In this document: positions 29,953 through 51,519 of the stretch, in pieces
How positions within the stretch are numbered: position 1 is the first letter of the stretch
How the letters are laid out: every line of letters begins with the position of its first letter
Source: Sedimentisphaerales bacterium
GTDB taxonomy: Bacteria > Planctomycetota > Phycisphaerae > Sedimentisphaerales > SM23-30
Strand: one strand, 5' to 3'
Length of the DNA: 64,000 nt
Assembly: GCA_963666285.1 (NCBI GenBank)
Contig: OY762711.1
Program-made: the position numbers and the translations under genes
The notes under the pieces: generated by a model
Told to the model about the DNA's origin: nothing
What the model saw: only the letters and a program-made list of their open reading frames with translations
Database searches by the model: none

Positions 29953-29981
29953 TTGAAAAATTTTGGATACATGAGGGATTT

Positions 29982-31128: not shown

Positions 31129-31136
31129 TATTTACA

Positions 31137-32641: not shown

Positions 32642-33168
32642 GCAGTTATTGTGCCGGATAGTGATTGGGATTGAAAGGAGTCTGGTGTGATAGTTCCGGT
32701 TAATTTGCATGGTCGGCGGGATATCACTTTTTTCGTTCAATCTAATAACTCATACTGACCGATGGCCGGTTTGAGAGGTATTAGTTTTCAGGTATTAGTG
32801 ACAGATTGCCGCGGCCCTTCGATGAACTCAGGGCAGGCGGCATACTATTTGAATTTTTAATATAACAAATTGTGAATTAAAACTTGTTTACAGTAAAGCA
32901 AAGTCTAAAATATCTCACTTTGAGTAAATTAATATTTTGCTAACAATTATCGGTCCGAAATTAACAATTGCGGTAAGTGTCTGGATAGTCAGGTTTTATG
33001 TGGCATGAATTGTTAAGGATGTGGTTGGGGGTAGCTGGGAGGGGAAATGTCTATATTATTTTTAACGATTATGGTTTAATAATTTTCGTATATATGCAGT
33101 TATTTAATAGAGGGCAATTGATTTTGTTTCTGTTTTTAAGCAAATAAAGACAAAACGGATATATCGAA

Positions 33169-33708
33169 ATGTACGACAGGCAACCAGATACAGACCAAAC
33201 AGAGAGTTATCTAGAGCTTCTGATGGCGAATCAGAAAGGGATATATGCTTATATCCTTACTATGGTATCTAATTTTGCTGATGCGGATGACATAATGCAG
33301 TCAGTTGCGACAGTGATGTGGCGAAAATTTGACGAATATAAGCCGGGCACAAGTTTTCCGGCCTGGGCAGTGAAGATAGCCCATTATGAGGTTCTGATGC
33401 ATCGTCGGCGTAAGAAAAATGAGATATTTCATTTTAACCCTGCGATAGAAGAGGAACTCCAACGGTGTGCGTCGGAAATTAACGTAGAGAGCAATATCCG
33501 TCTGGAGACGTTAAAATTGTGCCTGACCAAGCTGAGTGATAAGCATCGTGAAATCCTGAAACTGTATTATGAAGATAATATGACGCAGAAAAACATATCG
33601 GAGCGGATCGAGATGTCGGTTCAGTCAGTATGTAAAAATATGTCTAAGGCACATGATTTCCTAATCCGATGTGTTCGCAGGACAATGGCAATTGAGGAGG
33701 AGGTTTGA
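33169..33708 (+). CDS. ECF sigma-70 factor (Rhodopirellula/Verrucomicrobium type), module 1
   Basis: IYAYI...DADDIMQ...WRKFDEY...FPAWA; region 4 CLTKL...YYE. Confidence 0.92.
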   Translation: MYDRQPDTDQTESYLELLMANQKGIYAYILTMVSNFADADDIMQSVATVMWRKFDEYKPGTSFPAWAVKIAHYEVLMHRRRKKNEIFHFNPAIEEELQRCASEINVESNIRLETLKLCLTKLSDKHREILKLYYEDNMTQKNISERIEMSVQSVCKNMSKAHDFLIRCVRRTMAIEEEV

Positions 33709-35351
33709 TAATGCAGGCTGATCCTCATTTTATTGATTTGCTGGTGCAGGCAGCGGAAGGCGTTTTAGATGAGAGCGGCTACCGTGAACTTGATCGGTAT
33801 ATGACCGACAATCCGGATTATATTCGTGTATATGCCGAATTTTTTGCTATTGCCGGAATGATGCGTCAGGGCGGGAGTATAATCAGTAAGACCGACAGTA
33901 AGGCGCTGCACGAAAAAATCGAATACGATCTAAACCGCCAGGTATTGGATCAGGATACGTCGGTCGAGTGTGTTAAAGAAGAGCCGGTTAATCGGGTATC
34001 TAAAAGGCCGACGTTCAAATCGGTAAATAAACTAATCTGGGCCGCGGCAGCAGTGATTCTGTATTTTGTTTCGCTCGAGTTTGTACTGAATGTCAGCAGA
34101 AATGACAATATTGTAGCAGATAGAGTTGTTGCTACTATCACCAATTCTGTAGATGCGAAATGGGACAGTCAGTCTCATTCATTGGATGCAGGTCATGACT
34201 TGCATGCCGGCAGGTATATCCTGACAGATGGCTACGTGCAGCTGACCAGTACCAACGGCAGCAAGGTAATAGTCCAGTCGCCGGCAGAGCTGTACTTTGA
34301 GACAGCCAAGGATATTTTACTGGTAAAAGGAGCGGTTGTAACCCGGGTAAGTGAGGGCACTAAAGGTTTTACCGTTCGTACCCCGCATGCCAGTGTAGTA
34401 GATTTCAGTACCGAATTCGGCGTTTTAGTTAATGATGACGGCGAGACGGTCGCGCATGTATTTGACGGAGAGGTCGAGGTTCGTGACAGTATGAACCCTA
34501 CCGGTTTCGATAAGAAGGTCCGGCTTGGTGTCGGCGAATCCGCCCGGGTTGACTATAAAAATATTATCACTAAGAGGGCTATTGATACCGCGGTTTTTCA
34601 TCGGCAGCTGCCGACAGAATATGAAGCTGATATATATCGACTCAAGCCGGTTGCTTTCTGGCGATTTGATTCCGACAGTTCATATCCGGTAAATACTATT
34701 AATTCGACCGACAGATCGGCCAGGTATTCTGGCAAGGTTAAATTTGTTCGGGGCAGCGGAGTTTCCGGTTCGGCAGTCGATTTTAGCGGTGTTGACAGTT
34801 ATGTGAGTGTCCCAGAATTCTTTTCGGATAATTTCCCGGGAGAGGAATGTTCGTTAATAGCCCTGGTTTGCCCGGAAAGCGACAAACAGCAGAATATTTT
34901 GCTGACTAGCAACATTAAAGGTCCGGAATATAATTTTTCAATGCAGCTGCGTATAAACAGCGAAAAGAAATATGAATTTTATACCCTGACAAAATCCCAT
35001 GTTGCTAATACCACCAAGGGTAAGTTTACCCTTTCTTCCGATTGTGAAGTTAAGGTTGGTAAATGGGTTCTGCTGGCGATTTCTGTTGGTACTGATAACA
35101 GTGTCAGATTTTATGTAAACGGAGAGCTGTCAGCTTCAATGGTCCTGAATGACAGGTTATATAGTTCGTATCACGATTTGTATATTGGTTGTGCTTCCGG
35201 TAATAAAATGAGATATCCCGAGCATCGTTTGTCGGCATTTGAGGGCGCCATTGACAATATCGCTGTTCTTAACTATGCATTGAGTGATAATGACGTAAGA
35301 CAGATTTACATGTCTTTAACAAAAAATAATAATAAACCAGGCAAAGATTAA
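33705..35351 (+). CDS. FecR-type anti-sigma factor with C-terminal LamG domain
   Basis: Single TM, GFTVRTPHASVVDFSTEFGV..HVFDGEV, FEGAIDNIAV. Confidence 0.9.
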   Translation: MIMQADPHFIDLLVQAAEGVLDESGYRELDRYMTDNPDYIRVYAEFFAIAGMMRQGGSIISKTDSKALHEKIEYDLNRQVLDQDTSVECVKEEPVNRVSKRPTFKSVNKLIWAAAAVILYFVSLEFVLNVSRNDNIVADRVVATITNSVDAKWDSQSHSLDAGHDLHAGRYILTDGYVQLTSTNGSKVIVQSPAELYFETAKDILLVKGAVVTRVSEGTKGFTVRTPHASVVDFSTEFGVLVNDDGETVAHVFDGEVEVRDSMNPTGFDKKVRLGVGESARVDYKNIITKRAIDTAVFHRQLPTEYEADIYRLKPVAFWRFDSDSSYPVNTINSTDRSARYSGKVKFVRGSGVSGSAVDFSGVDSYVSVPEFFSDNFPGEECSLIALVCPESDKQQNILLTSNIKGPEYNFSMQLRINSEKKYEFYTLTKSHVANTTKGKFTLSSDCEVKVGKWVLLAISVGTDNSVRFYVNGELSASMVLNDRLYSSYHDLYIGCASGNKMRYPEHRLSAFEGAIDNIAVLNYALSDNDVRQIYMSLTKNNNKPGKD

Positions 35352-35500
35352 TGTAGTGTGTGGGAAGGAGAAGAATATAACGAGAATTTGTAACGGAATC
35401 TAACGCAATACAAATCTGTATTGTTATGAAAGTTGTTTTCAGAAATGAGAAATCATATGAGTTTGTTAAGTTTTTATATAAATCTTTTTTGGAGGTTATT

Positions 35501-37471
35501 ATGAAGAGTATCAAATTGTTTTTGGGGGTAATTTGTCTTTTAAGTTTGGCTGCGGCGATAAATGCTGATGTTGTAACTTATGATTTTGATGATGGCACTG
35601 TCCAGGGTTGGAGCAATCAAGGCGATGAAGACTATATCTCATGGAATACCGATGAAAATACTAATAGCAGTAGAACTGTTGCCAGGTCAGGAGCTTACAT
35701 GGCTCTTGAAGAGGATTATTCCAGTCGTGATGCCAGTGATGCTATTGTAAAAGTTTTCAGTTCACCTGAGTTCCTGATTTCATCTACCAGTTCAGTAGAG
35801 ATCTGGACATTGGGCGGAACCGGTGGAATAGATGTACCAACCTGGACGAATATTAGTGATTTGCCAGGGTTGTGCGAGAGTGAAGGATTTATGGGTGCTG
35901 CTCTAAGGCGAGTAAGTGACGGGGAATATCTCCTGTTCAGTCGCCGCAGTGCCTCGGGCCAAAGCAATAGGGATGTAAACTGGTTGCCTGTCGGTTTTTC
36001 AGCAGAAGAAATAGCAACCGCTGTTTCTGCCGACAGTGCAACTGAAACTTATGTAGTAGATATTATCGATACTTATACCGGCGGCTGGGGCTGGATTGGT
36101 ATTGATGATGCAACCTTTACTGATGTTGAAGTTGTTGGTACAAAACCGGTAGCTACATATCCGCAGCCAGAGAGAAGAATGGTTGATGTTCCAATGACAA
36201 CGAGCCTGTTAGATTGGGATGTGTTTAATGCTGCTTCTCCAACTTATGATGTATATTTTGGTGTCGATCCGGAAGGAGTGCAATGGCTGGAATCTACAGC
36301 AGGCTTAGCGGTTTCTGAATGTTCAATTTCTACCACATTAGCATCTGACACCACATACTACTGGCGTGTCGATGTTCATGAGGCCGGAGATCCGAATACC
36401 TATACTGGTGAATTATGGTATTTTGCAACCGAGAAAGAATTGCCTCAGATTACTGCAGAGCCGAAGAATGCTTACGCCTTTGTTGGCGAATCAGTACAGT
36501 TTGAAGTTTCTGCTTCTGATCCTCTGGAAGGCAGTCTCAGCTATCAATGGTACGAAGGGGTATCTCCTGATAAGTCAAATGCTATTGATGGTGCCGTATC
36601 TGAGGTGCTGACAATATCATCAGTAACAACCGAAGATTTTTCAACTTCATTCTATTGTGAAATTACCAATGCCCAGGGCTTGTCTGATAGTGCATCGGCA
36701 GTAGTAATCAAAAAACATATGCTGGCCTACTGGCCTATGGACAGCCTGTCAGATCCTAACAGTATGGTTGAAGGTACACCCGACATTAAAACTAACGGAG
36801 AGCCTGTGCTTGTTGATGGTGTAGTTAACGGAGCGTTCCAGTTTGATGGTGAGGATGATTTCCTTTATGTACCAGAATCCGGCACATACTTCAATCAGAT
36901 GAATGTTAGTTGTTCTGTGGCTTGTTGGATAAAATCTTCTCAAATGGATAGATGGGCTCCATTTGTCAGTAAACACGGAGAATCAAATCAGGGCTGGCAA
37001 CTGCGTCAGTATACTGAAAATGGTACAGCAACCTTTACAACTCGCGGTACAGGAAATGAAGACGGAACTTCTACAGGAACTCTGATTAATGACGGGCAGT
37101 GGCATTATGTAGTAGGCACTTTTGACGGCAGGCATAAAAATATTTATGTTGATGGCATTGAGATGTATTCTCTTGAAGTTACGAGTTCGATAGAACCGTC
37201 AGCCAACGCTGTCGCAATTGCAACTGAAATTGTCGATACTGACCATAGTTATAATGACATGTTCCATGGCGTAATTGATGAAGTAAAACTGTACAATTAT
37301 GCAATGGATAAATATGAAGTAGCCCAGATTTATGCAGATATCTCCGGCAATTCAGTTTGTCCTGAATATTCAGCTTCAGATCTGGATAAAGATTGCGACG
37401 TTGACCTTGAAGACTTTGCGATTCTTGCCGAATCCTGGTTAAAGGTTAATACAGTTTCACCTCAGGAGTAA
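35501..37471 (+). CDS. Secreted protein: unnamed domain X + FN3/Ig-like + LamG + dockerin-like tail
   Basis: GGAGG RBS, signal peptide, YYWRVD, SYQWY, DGQWHYVVGTFDG, DLDKDCDVDLEDFAILAESWL. Confidence 0.88.
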   Translation: MKSIKLFLGVICLLSLAAAINADVVTYDFDDGTVQGWSNQGDEDYISWNTDENTNSSRTVARSGAYMALEEDYSSRDASDAIVKVFSSPEFLISSTSSVEIWTLGGTGGIDVPTWTNISDLPGLCESEGFMGAALRRVSDGEYLLFSRRSASGQSNRDVNWLPVGFSAEEIATAVSADSATETYVVDIIDTYTGGWGWIGIDDATFTDVEVVGTKPVATYPQPERRMVDVPMTTSLLDWDVFNAASPTYDVYFGVDPEGVQWLESTAGLAVSECSISTTLASDTTYYWRVDVHEAGDPNTYTGELWYFATEKELPQITAEPKNAYAFVGESVQFEVSASDPLEGSLSYQWYEGVSPDKSNAIDGAVSEVLTISSVTTEDFSTSFYCEITNAQGLSDSASAVVIKKHMLAYWPMDSLSDPNSMVEGTPDIKTNGEPVLVDGVVNGAFQFDGEDDFLYVPESGTYFNQMNVSCSVACWIKSSQMDRWAPFVSKHGESNQGWQLRQYTENGTATFTTRGTGNEDGTSTGTLINDGQWHYVVGTFDGRHKNIYVDGIEMYSLEVTSSIEPSANAVAIATEIVDTDHSYNDMFHGVIDEVKLYNYAMDKYEVAQIYADISGNSVCPEYSASDLDKDCDVDLEDFAILAESWLKVNTVSPQE

Positions 37472-37568
37472 TTTATCCAGTTTTTTTATCATTAAAGGGG
37501 TATGCCATGTGCATACCTCTTTAATTTATGCCTTATATGAAATGAATGAGAATAGAAAGTACGAGATT

Positions 37569-39401
37569 ATGAGAAAAGTATTTTGTTTTATTTGTCTGTT
37601 GGCTCTAATTAGTAATGTAAGTGATTTACTAGCAGATTCATTGTCATACAATTTTGATGATGGTAATCTTAATGGATGGGCCAACAGGGCAGACATGCTT
37701 GAAAATTATATTGTTTTTGATACATCTTCTAATACTTATGATGGCAGGTGTGTTGCCTATTCCGGTAATTTCATGCTGTTAGAAGGTAACTATGACGACC
37801 GTGACAGCGACACTGTCGTTAAGGTTATTACTTCTCCGGAGTTTATACTGACCGCTGATACTTCAGCGGAGATATGGTCTCTGGGCGGTACCGGTGCGAC
37901 AGGCACTCCGCAATGGGCAAATATTAGCCAGCTGCCGGAAACAGCTGATGAGAGCGGTTTTATGGGAGCGGCTCTTCGACGTGTCAGCGATGGAGAGTAT
38001 TTTCTATTCAACAGGAGGTCTACTTCCGGGCAAAGCAACCGGGATGTAAACTGGCTCAATATCGGCTGGGATCAAATATCAGGTATTTCAGGCGATGATC
38101 TTACTGACGGAGAAACATATGTTATTGATATTATAGATACATATTCCGGCGGCTGGGGCTGGATCGGGATAGACAGTGTTTCCCTGGAAAATGTTATTGT
38201 CCCCGGTGTGACCTCTTTGGCCTATATTGTCCAGCCTTTGGATCTGAGTGTCGTGAAGGGTTTTGAGGCGGTCTTTTCAGTTGCAGCATATTCCAATGAC
38301 GGCACTTTGAACTATAAATGGTATAAGCAAGGTGAAGATACGGTTCTTTCAGAGAGTTCGAAATTGGTTTTTAATACTGAGTTTGAAAGTGCCGGTTACT
38401 ACTACTGTGTAATCTCCAACCAGCAGGAAGAAGTAACCTCTGACTTAGTAGAGTTAATGGTTAAAAAAAGTTCTGAGGTTCTCAAAGGTGACATTAATGA
38501 TGATTACGTAGTTGATGTCTCAGATCTGGTCGAATTTGGCCGGGACTGGCTGGGTGTATCGGCTTTGGGGCCGGATGACAGTCATTTACAGGCTGTTATT
38601 TCAGATTTTCGTGACAGTACCAGCGATGTTGTCCAGGTAGCATCTCATCGCGGTGACTGGAAACACGCACCGGAAAATTCTCTGCCGGCTATTCGAGGCT
38701 GTATCGATATGGGAATAGCATTTGTGGAGATAGATGTTCGCAAGACAAAAGATGGCCGACTGGTTTTGATGCATGATTCAACTGTGGACCGGACAACAAA
38801 TGGTTCGGGTAATGTTTCAAGTCTCACTCTAGATGAGATAAAGGCTTTGAGGCTGAAAAATTCAGATGGTTCGCTTTCTCAGTACCAGGTTCCTACTCTG
38901 GAAGAGGCAATGTTTTTTGCGAGGGGTAAGATAATGGTTAATCTTGACAAGGCCTGGTCTATCAGGAATGAATGTCTGGCAGTACTTGTCGATACCGATA
39001 CGGTAGATCAGGGGCTTTTCAAATCCAGTGGTGATGCAGCAACATTGAAAAAGCAGATAGATGAACTTCCAGAAGATATTAATTTTATGTATATTGTGAG
39101 CTGCAGCGGGACCGATTCGCCGGCAGTTTCAACTGTTATGGACAGCATTTCTTTGCTGGCACCGGATGCAATAGAGGTTTGTTTTGGAGATGATGAGCAT
39201 CCGCTGGTATCGAGTGAAAATATAGAAGCAATCCGTCAGCTGGGTGTGCGTGTGTGGGTGAACTCATTGTGGTCCGGCAGTCTCAGCGGCGGCCATCCCG
39301 ATGGTGATACTGATACCTGGGACTGGCTGATGGACAGGGGAGTTACAATCATCCAGACTGATTACCCGCAGATGCTACAGGAATACGTGGAAGAAGAGTA
39401 G
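37569..39401 (+). CDS. Secreted glycerophosphodiester phosphodiesterase with domain X, Ig and an internal dockerin-like repeat
   Basis: SHRG...PENS...EIDV...DG.LVLMHD...DRTT; GV..IQTDYP; GDINDDYVVDVSDL...WL. Confidence 0.9.
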   Translation: MRKVFCFICLLALISNVSDLLADSLSYNFDDGNLNGWANRADMLENYIVFDTSSNTYDGRCVAYSGNFMLLEGNYDDRDSDTVVKVITSPEFILTADTSAEIWSLGGTGATGTPQWANISQLPETADESGFMGAALRRVSDGEYFLFNRRSTSGQSNRDVNWLNIGWDQISGISGDDLTDGETYVIDIIDTYSGGWGWIGIDSVSLENVIVPGVTSLAYIVQPLDLSVVKGFEAVFSVAAYSNDGTLNYKWYKQGEDTVLSESSKLVFNTEFESAGYYYCVISNQQEEVTSDLVELMVKKSSEVLKGDINDDYVVDVSDLVEFGRDWLGVSALGPDDSHLQAVISDFRDSTSDVVQVASHRGDWKHAPENSLPAIRGCIDMGIAFVEIDVRKTKDGRLVLMHDSTVDRTTNGSGNVSSLTLDEIKALRLKNSDGSLSQYQVPTLEEAMFFARGKIMVNLDKAWSIRNECLAVLVDTDTVDQGLFKSSGDAATLKKQIDELPEDINFMYIVSCSGTDSPAVSTVMDSISLLAPDAIEVCFGDDEHPLVSSENIEAIRQLGVRVWVNSLWSGSLSGGHPDGDTDTWDWLMDRGVTIIQTDYPQMLQEYVEEE

Positions 39402-39853
39402 TCTTTTCATTTGCATATATAAGTTATAAGGTCAGTAACTTTTGTTTACTTTAGGGTAAGTGCGGGTTGTTATAGGACTTTTTGCAGATTGAGTACTATT
39501 GGGTGTAGTTTTAGTATTTGAGGGATAATTTGGGTTTTATGCCGGTGGATAGGGGAATATTGTTGGGATTTCAGTAATATTTTTTTGTTGGCCGAATGTT
39601 TTCTTTTTAAAACCTATCGATTGTAAATCTTTTCTATTTCTATGTTTATATTAAATTAGCAGTCTGTTTCCTGTTGGAGTTAAAATTTCTGGATTTTTAG
39701 GGGTTGCTGTTTGGTATGTTTGGCTGATTATTATAATGGAAGGAGCAGCTCTTTGGCTAAGCCTGAGAGCGGGTGTTTTTTGTCAGGTATTGGCTTATTT
39801 TTTAGGTTAGTGCCTTAAATTATGCGAATATATGTCTTTAGTTTAGGAACTAT

Positions 39854-40369
39854 ATGTCATTAAGAGATTCGAAAAAATTTCTCAGCCTGTTGAGCAAGTC
39901 TCAAGCGAGGATTCATGCGTACATTTTGTACCAGGTACCGAATCGCAATGATGCCGAGGATATCCTGCAGGATACAATAGTTGTTATGCTGGACAAATTT
40001 TCCGAATTTGAGGAAGGTACTAATTTTCTGGCCTGGGGTCTGCAGATAGCTCGTTATAAGATAATGGCATATCGGGATAAAAAAAAGAATTCCAAGCTGG
40101 TATTTGATGACAGTGTCCTGAAGATAATGGAAGAAGAGTCAGATATCCAGGATGCGATAGCGAAAGAAGATTCCGAGCGGCTTTCAGAATGTGTGAGCAA
40201 GCTGCCGGACAAATATAAAAAGTATCTGCAATACAGGTACGAAGAAAGTATGAGCTATAAGGCAATCGGTGACAAGATATCGGTTTCAGCCCAGGCGGTG
40301 CATAAGACCATGAGTAAGATTCATATTGCACTGATGAATTGCGTGCGGCTGGGAGTGTCAAAAGAATAG
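39854..40369 (+). CDS. ECF sigma-70 factor, module 2
   Basis: IHAYI...DAEDILQ...GTNFLAWG; paralog of 33169. Confidence 0.92.
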   Translation: MSLRDSKKFLSLLSKSQARIHAYILYQVPNRNDAEDILQDTIVVMLDKFSEFEEGTNFLAWGLQIARYKIMAYRDKKKNSKLVFDDSVLKIMEEESDIQDAIAKEDSERLSECVSKLPDKYKKYLQYRYEESMSYKAIGDKISVSAQAVHKTMSKIHIALMNCVRLGVSKE

Positions 40370-40371
40370 TT

Positions 40372-42096
40372 ATGAATGATAATAAGCTAATAAATGAAAT
40401 ATCACTGCTGATTTCCTATTCGATTGAAGGAGATATAACAGAAGAGCAGTTCAGCCAGCTGGAGCAGATACTAAAGAGCTCGCAGCAAGGTCGTGAATAT
40501 TATTATCGAATAATGTCAACTCATGCGTCACTGAGTGATTCCAAAAATGTTACCCTGCTGAGAAATAAGAAAGAGCGAGAGGCAGATTTTGAGGTTTTGA
40601 ACGAGCTTCTTGCAATTGAAACGAACTCGCCATCAATTGAGTTGCCGAAACCGGTCAAGCCGGAAGCCGTTTCAGAGATTACAGAGCAGGAAATCGAAGA
40701 AAATAAAAAGAAATTACGTTTTTATCATAGAATAAAAGTCCTGGTTTCAGTTGCCGCGGTACTTATCCTTGCAGTTATGATGCTGAATACGGTATTGGAG
40801 CCGGTTGAAATAGCAACAGTTACAAATAGTCTAAATACCACATTGTCAACGGGCGAAGAAATGACCAGTGGTATCCGCCTGATAAAAAGCGATTCGGTTT
40901 TCAGGCTTAAAAGAGGTTTGCTGGAATTAACCTATGACTGTGATGCGAGGATTATAATAGAATCTCCGGCAACCTTTAGTGTAGTTAGCGGTAAGAGCCT
41001 GAAATTGGATTCCGGTCGCATATATCTTGAGGCCTTATCAAAAGAAGCCAAAGGATTTACGATAATAACACCGAATTCTGATGTCATAGATCTTGGTACA
41101 GAGTTCGGTGTAGTGGTAGACCAGAATGGTATAAGTGAAGTTCATATGACCAAAGGTTCGGCAACCCTGAAATCTAAGATCCATCAAAAACAGCCGGTCA
41201 GCGAGACATTGATAGCCGGTCATGCCGGCCGGGTAGATTATACCGGCAAGATCGAAAAAGTTGAAGTTAAAGCGACAGGTTTTGTCCGCAGATTTGATGA
41301 GGCAAGCGGTGTAGTCTGGCGTGGCCAGGATCTGAGTCTGGCAGATATGATAGCCGGCGGTAATGGCCTTGGCGATGGATTTAAACAGGCCGCTCTTGAC
41401 CCATCGAACGGTAAGTTAATACCTTGGCAGTTAGCATTGGGTCGGCAAGGTGACGGTAATTACAAAGCCGTTATTGAGAATGACTATATTGACGGAGTGT
41501 TTGTCCCGGATGGCGGAGAAGGGCCGGTAGCGGTAAGTTCTCAAGGGCATTCCTGGAAAGCTCCCGACACATCGGGTGCATATAAATTTAATATAGCAAG
41601 TTCGTTAAGGTTTTTGGAGGATATCTCAGGTATTCCAATAGGAAATAATAAATCCGATCAGATGCTGGCGGAATCGCTCCATGGGCAAAAGCCTGTTCAA
41701 ATGGTAGTACCGGAGGCATGGGATAAATTGGATACCGCTCAACATTCCAGTATTTTTATGCATTCCAATCTCGGAATAACCTATGACCTTGAAAGGCTCA
41801 GGAAGGTTGTTTCAGGGCATCGGATATCAAATTTTGTAAGTAAATTTGGTGTTATGGAAAAGTATATGCATTTGGAAGGTGTCAAGATAACCGGCATGCA
41901 TCTTGATCTATGGGTACTCGTAGATGGTGAAATTAAGTATTCGGCAAAGGATGTAGACGCAACGAAACTGTTTGATATTGATATTGATATCAGCGAATCT
42001 GACAAGTTTCTTTCATTGGTTGTCACGCAAGGCAAAGATGATTATGCTTTTGACTGGGGGTTATTTGTTGACCCGATTTTAAAACTTGAAAAATAA
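40372..42096 (+). CDS. FecR-type anti-sigma factor with C-terminal NPCBM/NEW2-like domain (likely ATG 40372)
   Basis: TM, GFTIITPNSDVIDLGTEFGV; MHSNLGITYDL...VLVDG...FLSLVVT...DWGLFVDPIL. Confidence 0.88.
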   Translation: MNDNKLINEISLLISYSIEGDITEEQFSQLEQILKSSQQGREYYYRIMSTHASLSDSKNVTLLRNKKEREADFEVLNELLAIETNSPSIELPKPVKPEAVSEITEQEIEENKKKLRFYHRIKVLVSVAAVLILAVMMLNTVLEPVEIATVTNSLNTTLSTGEEMTSGIRLIKSDSVFRLKRGLLELTYDCDARIIIESPATFSVVSGKSLKLDSGRIYLEALSKEAKGFTIITPNSDVIDLGTEFGVVVDQNGISEVHMTKGSATLKSKIHQKQPVSETLIAGHAGRVDYTGKIEKVEVKATGFVRRFDEASGVVWRGQDLSLADMIAGGNGLGDGFKQAALDPSNGKLIPWQLALGRQGDGNYKAVIENDYIDGVFVPDGGEGPVAVSSQGHSWKAPDTSGAYKFNIASSLRFLEDISGIPIGNNKSDQMLAESLHGQKPVQMVVPEAWDKLDTAQHSSIFMHSNLGITYDLERLRKVVSGHRISNFVSKFGVMEKYMHLEGVKITGMHLDLWVLVDGEIKYSAKDVDATKLFDIDIDISESDKFLSLVVTQGKDDYAFDWGLFVDPILKLEK

Positions 42097-42402
42097 GTAT
42101 TGTTTTTTTCTTTTCTGATTATATTATAAAGAGTACAGGTTAAATCAAAATCATTTATGAAATATGGCAAGTTAAGGAAATAGAGAATTCTAATTTTAAA
42201 TTTTCCTGTTTATTTTAAATATTCTAACTGACTATCAGTTTTTTGATATGTATTTGGTATTAATTTTAAAAGTTCATTCTGATATTATTTATTGTTAATT
42301 AATTATCTAATAAGGTTTTCGTGTATATAAGAAATCTTTAATATTGTTACAAAGTATAGAAACCTGGATTTATTAACCATCTTTATTAGTGGAGGTCGTA
42401 CA

Positions 42403-45400
42403 ATGAGAAAAGTACACAAGTGTTTATTAGCTATTTTATTGTGCCTGTCGCTGCAGTGCGTAGTAACTGCGGCAGTATGGGAGATTTCACCCTGGACAGA
42501 TGATGCATCTTCCGGCATCGATTCGTCAAAGACTTATACCCATACAATCAATTTTTCGTACCAAACAGCCCCGACTGTGAATGGGGTAGAATTTGTTCTT
42601 TGTTGGGGAAGTTTTGCGAATGGATCGGCAAATGGTGGTGGATGGATTGACTGGGATGATGGTAATAATGTTGCGGGTGACAGTTACGAGTTGAGCAGGG
42701 ATTTCCATTATGGTAACACTTCGTTTGTTCTGTCAGGCCTAACTCCTGGTGGTGTATATGAATTAACATTTTTCAGTACTGCCTGGGAAGACGGTACCCG
42801 TACGGTTACACTAACAGATCAATATGGTACTTTTACATTCAATCAGGATGAATATGGCAACAACAATGGTATCAAGATTGTTGGTATTTATACTGCAGAT
42901 GCCGACGGTAAGCTTAATTTAACCACAGTTGGAGATTTTCATATTTATGCGTTTGCTAACTGTGAATACACCGGTGATTTGCCAGTTGTTGTTAACCCGG
43001 TTAGTCCGGATGATTTTGAAGGCGGTAATCGTTTCCCGACAGATACCGCTCTTACCTGGGCAGAAGAATTTGCCGGTAGTCTGCCAAATCCGGCGTTTGA
43101 TGTTTATTTTTCCACTGATGAAGCCATGGTAACCTCAATGGATTCTGAAGCACTGGTAAGTGCCAAGCAGGCAGAGTATAGCTATAGCCCGACTCTGGAT
43201 CCAAATGCTCTTTATTATTGGAGAGTTGCCACATATTCTGATACGGCAGATGTCGATCCAAACCAAATTACAGCTGTTAGAGCACTAAGAACAGTTTATG
43301 AGGAAGAACACTGGACAGATTCATCCTGGACTGATGACTCAGATTCAGGTATCAGTACCGGTAAGGTTTATACTCATAAAGTAAACTTTAACTCAACTGA
43401 ATCAGCCAAGACCCTGGTAAATGGCGTTTACTTTGAAAATGACGGCGACTACTCAGGTTCTGACTGGTCTTTGGCCGGAGCTGGAAGTGGTACCGGGCAA
43501 AGTCACAATATAGCCGGTGACGGCGGAACGCTGGTTACAAATATGTACTATGGTGCAGATGCGGTATTAACTCTTACCGGTCTGACACCGGGCGAAGATT
43601 ACGTATTTACCAAGTACGTTCAGGGCTGGGGCGATCCAAAAGGTCGTCTGGTACAATTTATTACCAGTGCTGACAACCGTACCACTACACTGGATGGAAA
43701 TATTGACGGTAACGGCAACGGTCATCTGTTTAAATATGCTTATACCGCACCTGCTTCAGGTGAGCTGGTAGTCACATTTGAGCCTCTAAGTTCCAATGAC
43801 ACATGGCATCATTATGCTTTCAGTAATGAAATAGCGGTTCCTGCTTACCTGGATCCAACACCGCTTCCAGGTGCAAGTGTAAGCTATGATGTTGAGCTTA
43901 GCTGGGAATTGAATGGTGATGTAGTTAACCCAACCTATAATTTGAAAGTGGCAACAGATGAGGCAATGACAAATCTGGCTGTTAACCAAACAGGTTTGTC
44001 AGCTACAGCTTTGACACCGTATCTTGCTAATGATACCGAATATTACTGGCAGGTAGAGATAGTTGAAGATGGTGGTTCGGTTATTTATACCAGCCCGGTA
44101 TGGAGCTTTATAACCACACCTCCGCAGGATGCCTTGAAGGTTATCGAATGGAAGTTTGATGAAACTACCGGCACAATAGCCGAGCAGACAGGTCCGACAG
44201 AAGATGCTGATGGTATCCTGGTTGGTTTTAATGATCCTAATACTCCTGGCGTATCACATGTTGCCGGTCTGGTAAATAACGGCCTGTATTTGAACGGCAG
44301 GGATGAGTATGTTGACGTGAGCAATGCTTATGTTTATATGCCGACAGCCGCGGGTCAATCATTTGCGATTTCCGGTTACATTCGTACATTTGATAATTAC
44401 GGTCCTATTTTCTCAATGCGTAATTCAGACGATGAGAATCCTATCATTGATATTGCCCTGGGTGCTGACGGTGTTCAGACTCAGTCAGGTAAGATCTGTG
44501 TGCTGGTTCGTGATGATAATTACTCAATGAGTAATATGAATTCCGGTATCAAAGTTAATGACGGCCGCTGGCATAACTTTATTGTTACCCGTATTGGTGA
44601 CAAATGGACTCTTTATGTTGACGGAGAATCTCGTGCAGTTATCAATGGTGCTGCAACCGGAAATGTTGATCTGAACCTTATGGCAATCGGAACATCACTT
44701 CGCTGGATCATGGATGGCTGGGGTATTTCAAATAGTGTATTAAGAGATTTCCATGGTATTATGGATGAGTTTGCAATATGGGACGGCGAGCTTCTGCCAA
44801 GTCAGATTGCAGCACTTGCATCTATAGTTCCGGGTCAGGGTGATGTAGACTTTGATATGGATACAGATATCGATGACCTGGCCGGATTGACATCAAACTG
44901 GCTGGCTGATACCACTACTGAAGTTCAGGCTGATGCAGTTCTTGAAGATATGGAAACCTATGCAGACGGTCAGGAATCAGTTTCAGCAAACTGGCCATAT
45001 ACAGCGGAAGATGATTTTGGTGACCTCGTTCTGACAGTTATTCCAGATCCAAATCTGCCAAGTCACGGCCAGATTTTGAAGATGGACTATGACTTCAGCA
45101 CTGGTGGACTGCATGCTCATATTCCTGTTGAACTTCCTAATCGTGGTGTAGCTCTTGGTCTTTACGATCAGATGGATATTACCCTGAAGAAACTTCCGGG
45201 CTGTGATATTTCAGATATTATCCTTGATATATATGACGCTCGCGGCAAAGTGAATCCGACAGAGGATGATCTGTATAATATAGGTCGTATAACTATTGGA
45301 ATTTCTGATATTGCTGTTAATGAATGGGTAACTGTCAGTGGTGCTATTCCTGATACTGAAGACATGGAAAGCTGTTCGGATCTTTACCTGATATCGTTCT

Positions 45401-45579
45401 CTATTCAGGATGGCGGCGAAGATATTGGCAGTATGTATATTGACAGTATGGTTCTAACCGACGCGACAGAGGACTGTGTCCCTGAGATCGGCCAGATGAT
45501 ACCGGACTTCAATGGTGACTGTACTGTGAATCTGACTGATTTCGCTGATATTGCTGAAGGCTGGTTAAGTTCTAACTAA
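42403..45579 (+). CDS. Secreted protein: two copies of unnamed domain Y, FN3-like, LamG, split dockerin-like tail around a CBM-like domain
   Basis: GGAGG RBS, signal peptide; WTDDASSGI..YTH.INF and WTDDSDSGI..YTH.VNF; NDGRWHN; two DxxxD..WL motifs. Confidence 0.88.
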   Translation: MRKVHKCLLAILLCLSLQCVVTAAVWEISPWTDDASSGIDSSKTYTHTINFSYQTAPTVNGVEFVLCWGSFANGSANGGGWIDWDDGNNVAGDSYELSRDFHYGNTSFVLSGLTPGGVYELTFFSTAWEDGTRTVTLTDQYGTFTFNQDEYGNNNGIKIVGIYTADADGKLNLTTVGDFHIYAFANCEYTGDLPVVVNPVSPDDFEGGNRFPTDTALTWAEEFAGSLPNPAFDVYFSTDEAMVTSMDSEALVSAKQAEYSYSPTLDPNALYYWRVATYSDTADVDPNQITAVRALRTVYEEEHWTDSSWTDDSDSGISTGKVYTHKVNFNSTESAKTLVNGVYFENDGDYSGSDWSLAGAGSGTGQSHNIAGDGGTLVTNMYYGADAVLTLTGLTPGEDYVFTKYVQGWGDPKGRLVQFITSADNRTTTLDGNIDGNGNGHLFKYAYTAPASGELVVTFEPLSSNDTWHHYAFSNEIAVPAYLDPTPLPGASVSYDVELSWELNGDVVNPTYNLKVATDEAMTNLAVNQTGLSATALTPYLANDTEYYWQVEIVEDGGSVIYTSPVWSFITTPPQDALKVIEWKFDETTGTIAEQTGPTEDADGILVGFNDPNTPGVSHVAGLVNNGLYLNGRDEYVDVSNAYVYMPTAAGQSFAISGYIRTFDNYGPIFSMRNSDDENPIIDIALGADGVQTQSGKICVLVRDDNYSMSNMNSGIKVNDGRWHNFIVTRIGDKWTLYVDGESRAVINGAATGNVDLNLMAIGTSLRWIMDGWGISNSVLRDFHGIMDEFAIWDGELLPSQIAALASIVPGQGDVDFDMDTDIDDLAGLTSNWLADTTTEVQADAVLEDMETYADGQESVSANWPYTAEDDFGDLVLTVIPDPNLPSHGQILKMDYDFSTGGLHAHIPVELPNRGVALGLYDQMDITLKKLPGCDISDIILDIYDARGKVNPTEDDLYNIGRITIGISDIAVNEWVTVSGAIPDTEDMESCSDLYLISFSIQDGGEDIGSMYIDSMVLTDATEDCVPEIGQMIPDFNGDCTVNLTDFADIAEGWLSSN

Positions 45580-45642: not shown

Positions 45643-45921
45643 ATTATATACCGCCGGGTGTAGCGGTTTTGATATTAGAGCAGTTTAATTTTTATGATTC
45701 GCGTCACTTTGTGGCGTGTTCGCTTTTTGCCTATTGCGGCTTCGGCTGATTTCATCAAAAAATAAAGTGCTCTGGAAAATAGAAGTAGAAAGTATTTGCT
45801 TATAGATCCATAACCAGGATTTTGGGCATGAGAGTTGAAGGTATTGATTCATACTGTAGATATTAATTGCATTATGTATGAATCATAAGATTATTAATCA
45901 ATTATCTAATGGAGACTTTTG

Positions 45922-48900
45922 ATGAAGCGTCAAGCATTTATATGGCTAGCGGTATTGAATTTGTTTGTTTCAGGGATCATTTTCCAGGATGCGGCATCGG
46001 CAGCGGAGCTGGAGGCGGGATATTTACGGTGTGAATATCGCGTGGACCCGCTTGGAATCGATGTGTTGAATCCCAGGTTGAGCTGGGTGTTAGAGTCTGA
46101 CCAGAGAGGTCAGGGGCAGAGTGCTTACCAGGTGCTGGCAGCTTCAACATTAGATAAACTTGAGCAGGGCCAGGGCGACCTGTGGAATTCCGGGAAAGTC
46201 AGTAGTGACGAGACGGCAGCAGTTAAGTATGCCGGTTCGACACTTACATCTCACCAGGAATGTTTCTGGAAGGTCAGGGTATGGGATAAAGACGGTACAG
46301 ATTGCGGCTGGAGCAGTCCGGCGAAATGGTCTATGGGGCTATTGCAAAGTTCAGATTGGCAGGCACGCTGGATAGGTTATGACCCGGCAGAAGCAGATCT
46401 GACAGTTCCGGATATTGTCAAGCAGGCTAACTGGATCTGGTCTGATGCCAATGCAGAGCAAGGTACGGAAGTTGGAGACAGGTTTTTCAGATATACATTT
46501 GATATTCCCGCAGGCAGTCAGATTGACAGTGCGATGTGTTATATAACCTGTGATGACGGCTTTGAGTTATTCGTTAACGGTCAGTCGGCCAAGGACGGTA
46601 CAAGTCACAGTATTCTGCACAAGGCAGATCTTATCAGTTTTTTGAAAAGCGGCAGCAACGTACTGGCAGTTCGCGGCACAAATAATGGGACCTCAAATAA
46701 TCCAGCGGCATTGCTGGCAGCCATGGAAGTGAAGTTAGTGAGCGGTGCGACAGTTCAGGTTGTTACAAACAGCCAGTGGAAGGCAAAACTGCAGGAAGCC
46801 GATGGCTGGAATAGAAATGATTATGATGATTCGCTATGGGGTAATGCATATACGTTTGGCAATTACGGTAACTCTACCTGGGGCAGCCCGTCAATTCAGC
46901 ATCTGCCGCCATCCCGCTATCTGCGAAACGAATGGACTTTGGCTGACAAAGAAATCAAGAGAGCAGTTCTTTATGTAACGGCATTAGGTAATTACGAAGT
47001 TTATGTAAACGGTCAGCGTGTAACCAATGATTATTTTTCACCCGGCTGGACAGATTATACCAGAAGGGTATATTATCGAACCTATGAAATAACCGATACA
47101 TTACAGAATGGTGATAATGCTATTGGCGCTGTTCTGGCCGATGGCTGGTATGCCGGTTATGTAGGCTATGCCAGGGAGCGAAATCATTATGGCGAAAAAT
47201 TACGGCTGGCCTGCCATGTAAATGTTGAATATGCCGACGGCAGCCGCCAGGTTGTTGGTTCCGGTACAGACTGGAAAGCGTCCCTTGGTCCGCTGGCATA
47301 TGCAGATTTTCTGCAGGGTGAATATTATGATGCCCGCAAGGAGCTGACCGGCTGGGACTACCCCGGTTATGATGATACCGGCTGGGAGCCGGTTGTGGCC
47401 GGGACTGACGAGGTTAGCCCGCAAGTTCAGGCGGCAGTGTCAGAGCCGGTAGTAGTTTATGCCGAGGTTAAGCCAATATCTGTAGCGGAACCCGAATCTG
47501 GAACATATGTATTCAATATGGGTCAGAACTTTGCCGGTTTTGTCCGTTTGAAGATATCAGGTCAGGCCGGTCAGAAGATTCAGCTTAGACATGCCGAAAG
47601 ACTTAACCCGGACGGAACAATTTATACCACAAACCTTCGCAGCGCGTCGGCGACCGATACCTATATATGTAAAGGTGATGGAGTTGAAATCTGGCAGCCA
47701 TACTTTACCTTCCATGGTTTTCAGTATGTCGAGTTGACAGGTGTTGATTCGACTCCTTCGCTGGATGCCGTTACCGGTCTGGCTGTCAGTAGTGACACAC
47801 CAGTAGTTGGTACTTTCGAGTGTTCAGACAAGATGGTAAATAAGATCCAGCAGAATGCATTGTGGACCCAGCGGATGAACTTTATTGATATTCCGACTGA
47901 CTGTCCGCAGCGTGATGAAAGACTTGGCTGGACTGGTGATGCTCAGGTATATATCAATACTGCATGCTACCAGACAGATGTCCAGGCGTTCTTTACCAAG
48001 TGGATTACCGATCTGAACGATGCTCAGCGTGAGGATGGCCAGTTCCCAACGGTTGCTCCTTTGAAAGTTTCCGGTGGAGACGGCGGTCCGGCCTGGGCTG
48101 ATGCCGGTGTTATCTGTCCGTGGACTATTTACAAGATGTACGGCGATAAGCAGATAATAGCGAACAGTTATGAACCGATGAAGCAATTTATCGCATTCTG
48201 TAAGAACCGCTGCACCAGCGAGCTGCTGCCTCCGAGCAGTTTCCACTGTTTTGGTGACTGGGTGAATATCAACGATAATACGCCAAACGAAGTTATCTTT
48301 ATGGCATATTTCGGTTACAGTACAAACCTGCTGGCCCAGATGGCCGAGGTTCTGGGATATACTGCTGATGCCGCGGAATATCGTGATTTATTCGAGCAGA
48401 TTAAGACTTCGTTCAATAATGCTTATGTTGCGGATGATGGTAAGATCAATGGTGACAGTCAGTGTGCGTATGTTCTGGCGATTGCCTATGACCTGCTGGA
48501 TGAAGATACTCAGAAGCTGGCAGCCAAACACCTGGTCAGACGTATTAAGGAATGCAACTGGCATCTTTCAACCGGTTTTGTAGGGACAAAAGACCTTATG
48601 CTGGCATTAGCCAAGATAGATCGTAATGATATTGCTTACCGCCTGCTGCATAATGAGACATTCCCGTCATGGGGTTTCTCTATTAAAAATGGAGCGACCT
48701 CGATCTGGGAACGATGGAACGGCTGGACCCCGGAAGACGGTTTTAACGATCCGGGTATGAACTCGTTTGCTCATTATTCATTTGGTGCGGTATGCCAGTG
48801 GATGTTTGAAAATATCGGTGGTATCAAGCCGGGCAGTGCCGGGTTTGGGGAAGTTGTTATCAAGCCGGAGCCGGATGATAAGATAAAATGGGCTAATGTA

Positions 48901-49410
48901 ACCTACAATTCTATTCGTGGTCCGATTGAGTCATCCTGGAAAGTGACCGGTTCGAATTTCGAATGTAAGGTAGCAGTGCCGGCCGGTACTACGGCGACCG
49001 TGTATATAATGGCTAATGATCCGGAAGAAGTAACCGAATCAGGGCTGAAAGCAAAGAATTCAGACGGTGTGAGCTACGTTGGTTTTGACGGCAAGTTTGC
49101 TATCTTCGAGGTAGTTTCAGGCAGCTATACCTTTAATTCAAAGATTAAATGGAAAGTGTCGGCCTGGTCTGGTGATGAGGATTCCGGTATAAGTGTTGGT
49201 AAAGTATACACGCATACGGTAAACCTTAATGCCGATGAATCGCTAAGTACCGTAGTAAATGGTGTAGTTTTTGAAAATGATAACGATCGCCAGGGTGATA
49301 ACTGGTATCTGTCAGGAGCACCTTATACTCATAGCTCGGCTCAGAGTGCTGTTGATGGTGAATCCGGAGGGATGCTGACAGATTTTTTTACTTTGAGCCT
49401 GCTCAGCTGA
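45922..49410 (+). CDS. Secreted GH78 alpha-L-rhamnosidase (0-frame part; continues in the -1 frame to 51407)
   Basis: LRCEYRVDPLGID, GQNFAG, FTFHGFQY, IPTDCPQRDERLGWTGD, GATSIWERW, MNSFAHY. Confidence 0.94.
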   Translation: MKRQAFIWLAVLNLFVSGIIFQDAASAAELEAGYLRCEYRVDPLGIDVLNPRLSWVLESDQRGQGQSAYQVLAASTLDKLEQGQGDLWNSGKVSSDETAAVKYAGSTLTSHQECFWKVRVWDKDGTDCGWSSPAKWSMGLLQSSDWQARWIGYDPAEADLTVPDIVKQANWIWSDANAEQGTEVGDRFFRYTFDIPAGSQIDSAMCYITCDDGFELFVNGQSAKDGTSHSILHKADLISFLKSGSNVLAVRGTNNGTSNNPAALLAAMEVKLVSGATVQVVTNSQWKAKLQEADGWNRNDYDDSLWGNAYTFGNYGNSTWGSPSIQHLPPSRYLRNEWTLADKEIKRAVLYVTALGNYEVYVNGQRVTNDYFSPGWTDYTRRVYYRTYEITDTLQNGDNAIGAVLADGWYAGYVGYARERNHYGEKLRLACHVNVEYADGSRQVVGSGTDWKASLGPLAYADFLQGEYYDARKELTGWDYPGYDDTGWEPVVAGTDEVSPQVQAAVSEPVVVYAEVKPISVAEPESGTYVFNMGQNFAGFVRLKISGQAGQKIQLRHAERLNPDGTIYTTNLRSASATDTYICKGDGVEIWQPYFTFHGFQYVELTGVDSTPSLDAVTGLAVSSDTPVVGTFECSDKMVNKIQQNALWTQRMNFIDIPTDCPQRDERLGWTGDAQVYINTACYQTDVQAFFTKWITDLNDAQREDGQFPTVAPLKVSGGDGGPAWADAGVICPWTIYKMYGDKQIIANSYEPMKQFIAFCKNRCTSELLPPSSFHCFGDWVNINDNTPNEVIFMAYFGYSTNLLAQMAEVLGYTADAAEYRDLFEQIKTSFNNAYVADDGKINGDSQCAYVLAIAYDLLDEDTQKLAAKHLVRRIKECNWHLSTGFVGTKDLMLALAKIDRNDIAYRLLHNETFPSWGFSIKNGATSIWERWNGWTPEDGFNDPGMNSFAHYSFGAVCQWMFENIGGIKPGSAGFGEVVIKPEPDDKIKWANVTYNSIRGPIESSWKVTGSNFECKVAVPAGTTATVYIMANDPEEVTESGLKAKNSDGVSYVGFDGKFAIFEVVSGSYTFNSKIKWKVSAWSGDEDSGISVGKVYTHTVNLNADESLSTVVNGVVFENDNDRQGDNWYLSGAPYTHSSAQSAVDGESGGMLTDFFTLSLLS

Positions 49411-51407
49411 TTTTGAGCGGGCTGGTGCCAGGTGAAGAATATGTACTGACTCAATATGCAAGAGGATATAGCGATCCCGGCGGTCGCGAGGTGTATATTG
49501 AGTCGAGCGATGATGGTGCTGTAATTATGATCGACCAGAATATGTATGGCGATCAGCAGGGCTGTATATTTAAGTACAGTTATACTGCCCCGGCATCCGG
49601 TGAGATAATATTGAGCTATACAGCATTAAATCCGGCAGATACCTGGCATCATTATGCGTTCAGTAATGAACTGGCAACTTCGATATATATAGAACCTGTG
49701 CCGGCTCCAGCCGAAGAGATAAGTATTTATGATCTTCTAGGCTGGAGCTTAATCGGGCCTGTCGATGATCCGGTTTACCGGGTAAAGCTGGCAACTGATG
49801 CGGCTATGTCTAACCTGGTAGTAGATGTCAGTGGTTTGACAGCAACGAGTTTTGACCCTGACCTGACATCGGAAACAGATTACTACTGGCAAATAGAGGT
49901 TACCGATGCCGGAGAAGTGGTACATACCAGCCCGGTGTGGTCATTTTCTACTTTGCCGGTGCCGCCGGATGCGGTGAAACTGCTCGAATGGAAGTTTGAT
50001 GAAACGAGCGGAACAATTGCCGAACAGACCGGCGAGGTTGATGGCGGTGATGGCGTTTTGACCGGTTTTGATAGTCCTGCAAATTCAAGAATTGCCGGCC
50101 TGGTGAATAACGGGCTATACCTTAACGGCAAGGATGAGTATGTGGATGTCAGCGGTGCTTATAGTTTGATGCCGGTTGCAGATGGTCAGTCGTTTGTAGT
50201 TTCCGGGTATCTGTGTACTTTTGATGATTACGGTCCGCTGTTTTCGATGCGTAACTCTGCCAATGAAAATCCTATTATTGATATTGCCCTCGGTGTCGAC
50301 GGAGTGCAGGTGGAGCCGGGAAATGTGTGTGTGCTTGTTCGTGACGATAGCGGTTCAATGAGTTATATGAATTCCGGTATGACCATAAATGACGGGCGCT
50401 GGCATAATTTTATTGTCGCTCGTTCAGTCAGTACCTGGACGCTTTATATTGACGGTGTATCACTGGCAGTTATTGATAATGCCGCGGCCGGTAATCTTGA
50501 CTTTGACATGATGGCGATAGGTACCTCGCTGCGCTGGATAGCAGATAACTGGCAGCCGCAATATAATTATTATAGAGATTTTCAGGGTATCGTGGATGAG
50601 TTTACCGTTTGGGAAGGCGAACTTCAACCGCCTCAGTTTGAAGAATTGATAGCCAGATTGTCATCGGATGAAGATATTAATTTTGATCATGCAATAGATA
50701 TTGGAGATTTGTCAAAGCTGGCATATGACTGGATTGATAGTGCCTGGCTGGCGGTCCAGCCGGATGCGGTATTGGATGATATGGACGCTTACGGTTCGGG
50801 CCAGTATGAATTTTCAGACTACTGGCAGTTTGTTTCTGAATCAGGTTACGGTAATATTGATATTTCAATAGTGAATGATTCAGAGGGAATCTATGGTCAG
50901 GTTCTGCTGATGGATTATGATTTCAGCGGCAGTCAATATGCCAGGGTACAGCAAAAAGTCTTTAATCGAGGAATAAATTTAGGTGTTTACGATAAGGTAA
51001 GCATTCGGCTGAAAAAACCGGTTGGCTGTGAGATAACCAAAGTCACTCTTGATTTTTATGATGGTCGTGACAAATCTGCTCCTGCGGCTGCTGATTTATA
51101 TCATAAAGGAAGTATTGACATTGATATTTCAAGTGTCGCTGTTGGCGAGTGGGTAACAGCTGCGAGTATTATCCCGGAGGGAGCCTCGGTTTTGAGAGGT
51201 TGTACCGATGTTTACCAGGTCGTACTTTCGATTGAAGATGGCGGTCAGGATGCCGGGACACTGCTGGTCGATAGTATCTACCTGTCGGATTATACCGAAG
51301 ATTGCATTTTGCAGGTTAACAGCGGGGCGGCGGACATTAATTATGACTGTGTCGTAGATATGTATGATTTTGAAAAGCTGGCGGAAAGCTGGCTTAATAC
51401 AAACTGA
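49389..51407 (+). CDS. C-terminal part of the GH78 gene (rest of domain Y, FN3, LamG, split dockerin/CBM), -1 frame
   Basis: No signal peptide; frame open from 49389 (YFEPAQLILSGLVPGEEY); colinear with the C-terminal ~700 aa of 42403..45579. Confidence 0.88.
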   Translation, partial: YFEPAQLILSGLVPGEEYVLTQYARGYSDPGGREVYIESSDDGAVIMIDQNMYGDQQGCIFKYSYTAPASGEIILSYTALNPADTWHHYAFSNELATSIYIEPVPAPAEEISIYDLLGWSLIGPVDDPVYRVKLATDAAMSNLVVDVSGLTATSFDPDLTSETDYYWQIEVTDAGEVVHTSPVWSFSTLPVPPDAVKLLEWKFDETSGTIAEQTGEVDGGDGVLTGFDSPANSRIAGLVNNGLYLNGKDEYVDVSGAYSLMPVADGQSFVVSGYLCTFDDYGPLFSMRNSANENPIIDIALGVDGVQVEPGNVCVLVRDDSGSMSYMNSGMTINDGRWHNFIVARSVSTWTLYIDGVSLAVIDNAAAGNLDFDMMAIGTSLRWIADNWQPQYNYYRDFQGIVDEFTVWEGELQPPQFEELIARLSSDEDINFDHAIDIGDLSKLAYDWIDSAWLAVQPDAVLDDMDAYGSGQYEFSDYWQFVSESGYGNIDISIVNDSEGIYGQVLLMDYDFSGSQYARVQQKVFNRGINLGVYDKVSIRLKKPVGCEITKVTLDFYDGRDKSAPAAADLYHKGSIDIDISSVAVGEWVTAASIIPEGASVLRGCTDVYQVVLSIEDGGQDAGTLLVDSIYLSDYTEDCILQVNSGAADINYDCVVDMYDFEKLAESWLNTN

Positions 51408-51487: not shown

Positions 51488-51519
51488 AGCCAGGGTATAT
51501 TTATCCTGGCTTTTATTTT
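51488..51519 (+). terminator. Rho-independent terminator candidate
   Basis: agccaggg...tcctggct followed by a T-rich tract. Confidence 0.6.

Follow-up and report, generated by a model that had tools for sequence, protein, structure and literature searches.

A putative programmed −1 frameshift signal in a predicted secreted GH78 rhamnosidase gene of Sedimentisphaerales

Results

A GH78 gene with a −1 frame break inside a module

The window analysed here is a 64,000-nucleotide (nt) stretch of contig OY762711.1 of a Sedimentisphaerales bacterium (assembly GCA_963666285.1; positions 224001-288000 of contig C1 of this genome, hereafter G000), and its plus strand carries a predicted glycoside hydrolase family 78 (GH78) gene interrupted by a −1 frame break. 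The 0-frame open reading frame (ORF) at 45919..49410 encodes 1163 amino acids (aa), comprising a hydrophobic N-terminus that is likely a signal peptide, the GH78 domains, the first half of a malectin-like module, and six extra residues before the stop. PF25788, PF08531, PF05592, PF17389, and PF17390 match above the Pfam cut-off, all before the break. The Rha78 N-terminal Ig, N, concanavalin-like, 6-hairpin, and C domains of the GH78 family are all present, and the product is predicted to be a GH78 α-L-rhamnosidase.

In the −1 frame, no stop interrupts the stretch between 49362 and 51407. Counted from the Tyr codon after a slippery heptamer at the break, it encodes a tail of 672 aa (49389..51407), and translation predicts a product of 1163 aa when the frame is kept and one of 1829 aa after a −1 shift, in agreement with the sizes of about 1160 and 1830 aa proposed in the first-pass annotation of this DNA. 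That annotation regarded the GH78 ORF and the downstream ORF as one gene broken by a −1 shift within a module that is intact in a paralogue. Both points hold: the heptamer is in frame and the −1 frame stays open to 51407, and the paralogue (42403..45579, plus strand), as seen from the ORFs and their alignment, has the same module and tail in one unbroken frame, with no GH78 domain. The paralogue contains no T run at the codons equivalent to the heptamer.

The heptamer and its downstream stem-loop

The U_UUU_UUU heptamer (49383..49389) consists of the last base of an Asp codon and two Phe codons, in the X_XXY_YYZ phase. A GGAGG element resembling a Shine-Dalgarno (SD) sequence, read as Gly-Gly codons (49366..49370), precedes it by 12 nt, and a 6-nt spacer (49390..49395) leads to a stem-loop (49396..49423), all located as first annotated. 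The stem had been described as 10 base pairs (bp) with the 0-frame stop in its loop; the arms and the TGA (49408..49410) lie where they were placed, and the pair count is to be corrected, since the fold gives 11 bp (arms 49396-49406 and 49413-49423) around a 6-nt loop.

The 61-nt region around the site folds at −20.9 kcal/mol (z −2.82). Among the 103 in-frame U_UUU_UUU heptamers in long frames of G000, this site has the strongest hairpin (−18.5; next −14.1), and it ranks first of the 14 heptamer-bearing −1 junctions in the genome (next −8.4). Of 41469 coding positions sampled, 218 (0.5%) have GGAGG in the corresponding window upstream. The 16S end of G000 carries the anti-SD CCUCCUU, and the genome has a single tRNA-Phe (GAA). 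We rejected the hairpin as an intrinsic terminator because the T run precedes it on the plus strand and reads as A on the minus strand; the terminator scan reports no such site here in either orientation.

A homopolymer of this kind also permits programmed transcriptional slippage, in which the polymerase would add one U on T7 and the resulting U8 mRNA would be translated normally into the long form. In dnaX genes, either ribosomal frameshifting or slippage can serve, and slippage has been argued for a dnaX case with seven A residues (PMC3711429). However, slippage is described as efficient on runs of nine (PMC5009743) or of eight and longer (PMC3711429), the run lies in exact heptamer phase, and the conserved structure lies downstream at ribosomal spacing, where a hairpin would not be expected to act on the polymerase. 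We consider slippage to be improbable at this site.

A shared break in half of the orthologues

Protein and genome searches yielded 14 genes that combine GH78 with this tail. Seven of them stop a few residues past the same Phe-Phe (the window gene, P0002, P0003, P0051, P0052, and the genes of G003 and G178, the last from a different family), and the other seven are uninterrupted (G001, G017, P0048, P0054, P0055, P0057, and P0058, which we treat as G002 or a near relative of it). The frame break is conserved in position across at least two families, and the TGA has the identical position in six of the seven split orthologues, the window gene and P0052 included; the stop of G003 lies five codons later. 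Full-length tail ORFs are seen in five of the seven. The −1 direction of the break was read in DNA for three split genes and deduced from protein ends for four.

The DNA-level comparison covered the split genes of G000, G003, and G178, which span two families at about 65-69% protein identity, and the unbroken genes of G001, G002, and G017. All three split genes have T7 as an in-phase U_UUU_UUU, the stem, and a spacer that is constant in length (6 nt) and variable in sequence. An SD-like element is found in two of them, 12 nt upstream of the heptamer in G000 and 15 nt upstream in G178 (AAGGAGGT). At the protein level, Gly-Gly stands at a position suiting an SD in 5/7 split proteins, four of these five belonging to one clade, and in 0/7 unbroken proteins. 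On the unbroken side, G001 and G002 read T8 in frame at the site and have lost the stem, and G017 reads TTT TTC with no stem, though its local amino acids nearly match those of G178. The first-pass annotation named uninterrupted orthologues without a conserved hairpin as one observation that would speak against recoding; the outcome favours recoding, since half of the orthologues are broken at the same place and, among the genes compared as DNA, only the broken ones retain the hairpin.

The T7 and T8 alleles at the site occur in different species, and this distribution bears on phase variation, in which the T run would be a slipped-strand contingency run and cells would switch the tail on (T8) or off (T7) by mutation. 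Such switching would suit the in-frame T8 of G001 and G002, sisters of the split G003, and the export of the product, a property shared by most phase-variable proteins (PMC3711429), and it would also account for the selection on the tail and the scattered pattern on the tree described below. However, it leaves unexplained the downstream hairpin and the synonymous constraint, which are found only with T7, the stem being lost in the T8 genes G001 and G002. All three split genes compared as DNA have exactly T7, all seven split genes end alike, and no T6 or T9 allele was seen; contigs of two sequencing runs across the window site list no T8 variant, though rare variants drop out of contigs. Phase variation is thus an unlikely explanation of the break.

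Searches of 70 genomes from the family of G178, of 276 from family f7, and of a class sample and an order sample with 401 genomes apiece gave no additional GH78-tail gene, and a metagenome scan with the first 200 aa of the tail gave five distant loci and no GH78-tail gene. An exact-pattern scan of GTDB genomes returned six matches, namely G178, G003, and four lying elsewhere than at a junction of this kind. In GH78 relatives that lack the tail, the protein ends precisely at the boundary where the tail would begin. G178 has a second GH78 copy (L130, G178:C1:3833702-3834016, minus strand; protein P0064), which is 90% identical to the split gene over the C-terminal 105 aa, reads TAA at the first tail residue (TGG in the full copy), and continues into a decaying tail remnant. 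From the tail-less relatives and this tail-less duplicate, it follows that these genomes retain a tail-less enzyme.

Constraint on the signal and the tail

Synonymous conservation along the split genes peaks at the site. The split trio uses identical codons at 8 of the 10 conserved degenerate positions of the junction (P 4e-4; background over the gene 0.26), a count reached by 2/827 windows, and the two differing codons fall in the spacer and the loop. Even without the Asp-Phe-Phe codons, 5/7 are identical (P 0.005); the unbroken trio shares 3/9 at the junction. The stem is paired in 31/33 cells in the three split genes versus 14/33 in the three unbroken ones, and the changes among split genes are one both-sided (C-G to G-U in G003) and two one-sided. 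By strength, every split gene has its hairpin within the top 0.2-0.6% of windows; in the unbroken genes the corresponding rank is 23-82%. Synonymous shuffling gave P values of 0.010, 0.001, and 0.062 for the split genes and 0.32, 0.62, and 0.82 for the unbroken genes.

The tail is under purifying selection as strong as in the unbroken genes: the proportions of nonsynonymous (pN) and synonymous (pS) differences are 0.27-0.34 and 0.68-0.77 between split genes, and 0.378 and 0.802 between the unbroken G001 and G017. No start codon of the tail is conserved across the split genomes, and the tail has no signal peptide, its N-terminal hydrophobicity being 0.3-0.9 against comparison values of 2.2-3.0. 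Since a shared start and a hydrophobic leader are both lacking, the tail seems most simply reached by way of the upstream ORF.

Under a plain split, the tail would be a pseudogene in decay, or a protein with its own start, coupled to the stop of the GH78 ORF. A TTG at 49413, 3 nt past the stop, could serve such a start, gene callers begin the tail proteins nearby, and the second copy in G178 did lose its tail through a stop. However, a pseudogene fits poorly with a tail that is selected as strongly as in unbroken genes and free of stops across a saturated synonymous distance. A separate protein would begin mid-domain, and its candidate starts fall at different codons in each genome, with no shared SD or hydrophobic N-terminus. 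We regard a plain split as very unlikely.

Reads and assembly controls at the T run

Runs X1 and X2 come from one sample, possibly the source of the G000 assembly. Their contigs cross the site with T7, without gaps or differing letters, and list no T8 variant; contigs drop rare variants. The sole X3 record at the site stops at 49388, short of bridging the run, and no short-read run was found that bridges it. No RNA run holding the region was listed, which does not bear on its expression. X3 also showed loose ends at 50122-50124, with a 30-nt end that has no match in G000; since X3 joints lie at GATC, GANTC, and TTAA sites, a proximity-ligation library is indicated, and the reading of these ends as an insertion was dropped.

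These data must be weighed against a shared long-read or assembly bias, under which the true run is T8 and the gene is unbroken. X1 and X2 represent one sample and may be the source reads themselves, the X3 record ends too early, and megabase contigs (3.4-6.2 Mb) hold 6/7 split genes and only 1/7 unbroken genes (Fisher p about 0.03, kin not being independent). In G000, on the other hand, coding runs are in frame in 17/17 cases for T8 and 104/107 for T7, shortened runs not being in excess of lengthened ones, and in 98/105 for A8, the remaining seven being copies of one repeated element or apparent gene boundaries. Long open frames of G000 include 127 A/T runs of at least eight, a count that covers intact runs only, and one of these shares the A-run-AC flanks. 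From these controls, the assembly does not generally lose bases in such runs. For G003 and G178, from which 416 and 419 kb with five runs of at least eight were sampled, the equivalent controls carry little weight. Comparison of 58 X3 contigs with window positions 24000-43999 listed no indel, G001 reads T8 at the site on a 4.24-Mb contig, and P0052 is split though it lies on a 12.8-kb contig. The stem is confined to split genes, and under such a bias the conserved hairpin would need another role, for example in a −1 shift that yields a shortened protein, the arrangement known from E. coli dnaX. We judge the bias improbable, and the null proposed at first, a long-read indel or phase variation, is much reduced.

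Modules of the tail

The break cuts a malectin- or carbohydrate-binding module (CBM)-like β-sandwich of about 177 aa in mid-domain (49144..49673; the limits are approximate, being mapped from the G017 model). The AlphaFold model of the unbroken G017 module is a single β-sandwich spanning residues 15-191, with the break at 96-97 (predicted local distance difference test (pLDDT) 69, predicted template-modelling score (pTM) 0.71). It aligns with residues 715-886 of 6d50_A (Z 14.4, root-mean-square deviation 2.8, 149 aligned). Its best structural matches comprise C-terminal modules of Bacteroidota β-glucuronidases (Z 14.4, 13.2, and 12.9), a FERONIA ectodomain (Z 13.0), and malectin (Z 11.2); Foldseek gave weak jelly-roll matches only.

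Pfam has no family for the module, although matches to it occur in 1052 representative proteins, often in multiple copies per protein, and we take it as an undescribed, widespread domain family. Almost all of the best 150 of these 1052 hits contain it complete. The only other half-domain start among those 150, P0203, was discarded; it is itself a fragment, on a 3.9-kb contig, and its cluster has a longer member. No other gene split in the same module was found in the loci scanned.

Downstream of the module, the tail contains a LamG/concanavalin A-like domain (50268..50633, PF13385 match) and two dockerin-like repeats, which resemble the PF00404-positive end of the neighbouring gene at 51755. 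The first lies at 50673..50738, and the second, C-terminal one (51333..51395) about 200 aa past it. An inserted domain of about 200 aa parts the dockerin-like repeats both at 50673-51395 and in the paralogue at 42403-45579. Feature-level look-alikes of the repeat region include clusters with CBM11 or CBM4/9 and dockerin, at scores under 0.9. G000 as a whole has 25 PF00404 dockerin matches, one of them within an 11185-aa open frame near C1:2758904. The fold suggests a carbohydrate-binding role for the tail. Past the tail, a terminator-like hairpin was picked up by consensus scan only (51488..51511, plus strand).

Other observations in the genome

Other homopolymer runs of G000 also coincide with frame junctions. 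Outside the window, a G11 run at C1:1262023 lies at an apparent +1 junction of two coding frames, as phase variation or a long-read error would give. The run at window positions 4553-4560, with three further copies in G000, and that at C1:4689122, with a second copy, are A8 and A9 runs; they lie in repeated elements, where two paired ORFs meet at a −1 junction, as in recoding of the insertion sequence (IS) type. The tRNA set listed by ARAGORN includes tRNA-Leu(AAG), which is unusual in bacteria, tRNA-Arg(TCG), and tRNA-Sec, and has no Ser(CGA). Window positions 24000-24600 and 28400-29000 show high summed depth and many short X1-X3 contigs, as multi-copy repeats do, and the X1 and X2 contigs have a one-base deletion at 28953. 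Contigs C2, C3, and C4 of G000 are of near-equal length (65.6, 65.6, and 66.6 kb) and are possibly variants of one plasmid or phage.

Discussion

We consider that the two frames form one gene whose −1 break is common to several relatives and is likely decoded by programmed −1 ribosomal frameshifting (PRF), a reading to which we give a probability of roughly two in three on the basis of the sequence comparisons. The sequence-level features of −1 recoding are all present except a universal SD. In the proposed mechanism, a ribosome with tRNA-Phe in its P and A sites would pause at the hairpin, and in some species the upstream SD would aid pausing or shifting. Some ribosomes would then slip back one base, with UUU re-pairing to UUU, and would go on to synthesize a secreted rhamnosidase of 1829 aa with malectin-like, LamG, and dockerin-like modules. 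Unshifted ribosomes would terminate in the loop and release the 1163-aa enzyme. The signal would thereby set how much enzyme is made without the tail, probably diffusing more freely, relative to a form that binds its substrate or the cell surface. The 6-nt spacer lies within the usual 5-9 nt between heptamer and structure (PMC8211752). U_UUU_UUU falls within the H_HH.U_UU.Y motifs, which rank with the most efficient ones in E. coli (PMC4066793). U_UUU_UUU itself is much weaker than A_AAA_AAG (PMC5009743), and the long form may therefore be a minor product.

Several observations weigh against this reading. The SD-like element is absent upstream of the heptamer in the split gene of G003, so that the three-part signal proposed at first holds for G000 and G178 and not for every split gene. 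Hairpin covariation, suggested as a check, gave a divided answer: the stem is nearly fully paired in the split genes, and the covariation score, obtained from six sequences with a single both-sided change, is no better than that of shuffles. The hairpin of G178 has one mismatch and is the one with the shuffle P of 0.062. The tail ORFs of P0051 and P0052 were not seen in the protein search, the 0-frame end of P0052 has an additional Phe (seen in protein only), and the imbalance in contig size points the same way. The break also lies in mid-domain, so that the short product ends in half a β-sandwich, unlike a clean switch at a domain boundary; this half-domain end may be trimmed or unfolded. As for the dockerin-tagged, tethered form that had been proposed, neither repeat has a Pfam match at E up to 1, and no PF00963 cohesin match was found in G000 (97% complete; divergent cohesins could escape), so that "tethered" remains a guess.

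The history of the split state adds a further difficulty. On the GH78 tree, the split state requires three changes, and holding the split genes as one clade is rejected (approximately unbiased (AU) test, p 0.021; three tail-less or outgroup rows, reduced from six). Since the split genes do not form one clade, repeated gain or loss is needed, and a single origin without reversals is ruled out by this test. The stem sequence shared across lineages fits one old origin followed by losses, through an added T in G001 and G002, the sisters of the split G003, and through loss of the run elsewhere. Repeated gain of the split state across lineages is the alternative, for which the unresolved base of the GH78 tree leaves room. 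We therefore put forward only tentatively, with less confidence than frameshifting itself, that Sedimentisphaerales keep an old and repeatedly lost −1 signal giving a set ratio of free to glycan-binding, dockerin-like-anchored rhamnosidase.

If PRF operates here, ribosomal recoding would determine which modules a bacterial carbohydrate-active enzyme (CAZyme) carries and where it is located, and would be an added route to free and appended-module forms of a secreted enzyme. The same choice can be reached by gene duplication, as in the tail-less copy of G178, or by proteolysis. The unbroken orthologues without a stem, the T8 orthologues with a decayed stem, and the tail-less duplicate are natural controls. 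Such genes call for caution, as they get annotated as two proteins or dismissed as long-read homopolymer errors. An open-access literature search found no bacterial CAZyme with −1 frameshifting, and nothing on rhamnosidases together with programmed frameshifting. To our knowledge, few chromosomal, non-mobile bacterial genes with −1 frameshifting have been described.

The first-pass annotation compared the layout to that of dnaX and IS911, and the comparison is apt. E. coli dnaX and the IS911/IS3 elements combine an SD, an X_XXY_YYZ heptamer, and a 3′ structure at the same spacing (PMC4066793, PMC3711429), as here apart from the SD missing in G003. As in the rhamnosidase gene, the longer product needs the shift in the IS3 family and in the two-ORF type of dnaX. 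The heptamer differs, U_UUU_UUU here and A_AAA_AAG there, the SD here is not in all members, and the rhamnosidase gene encodes an exported enzyme and is neither mobile nor replicative, unlike dnaX and IS3.

Among glycoside hydrolases, the closest counterpart is fucA1 of Saccharolobus solfataricus, an α-L-fucosidase gene in two ORFs with a −1 break, a homopolymer-like heptamer, a stem-loop, and unbroken orthologues, whose PRF efficiency is about 5-10% (PMC8211752). That gene is archaeal, uses A-AAA-AAT, and breaks after 81 codons, so that any enzyme needs the shift; its break is described from two strains with near-identical DNA, whereas the rhamnosidase break spans two families. In the rhamnosidase gene, unlike fucA1, the catalytic domains lie wholly before the break and the shift would add the 672-aa tail. 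Dockerin-tagged hydrolases of cellulosomes differ from this tail, in which the repeats are about 200 aa apart and without a Pfam match, in a genome with no PF00963 cohesin found. csoS2, copA, and magnesium chelatase are chromosomal genes that each give N-terminally identical long and short proteins, with a conserved shift site that selection maintains (PMC5009743). It is the short form that results from the shift in csoS2 and copA, and none of the three is a secreted CAZyme. What appears to be new here is a pyrimidine heptamer in the gene of a predicted secreted modular enzyme, where it would decide whether a tail of 672 aa is added.

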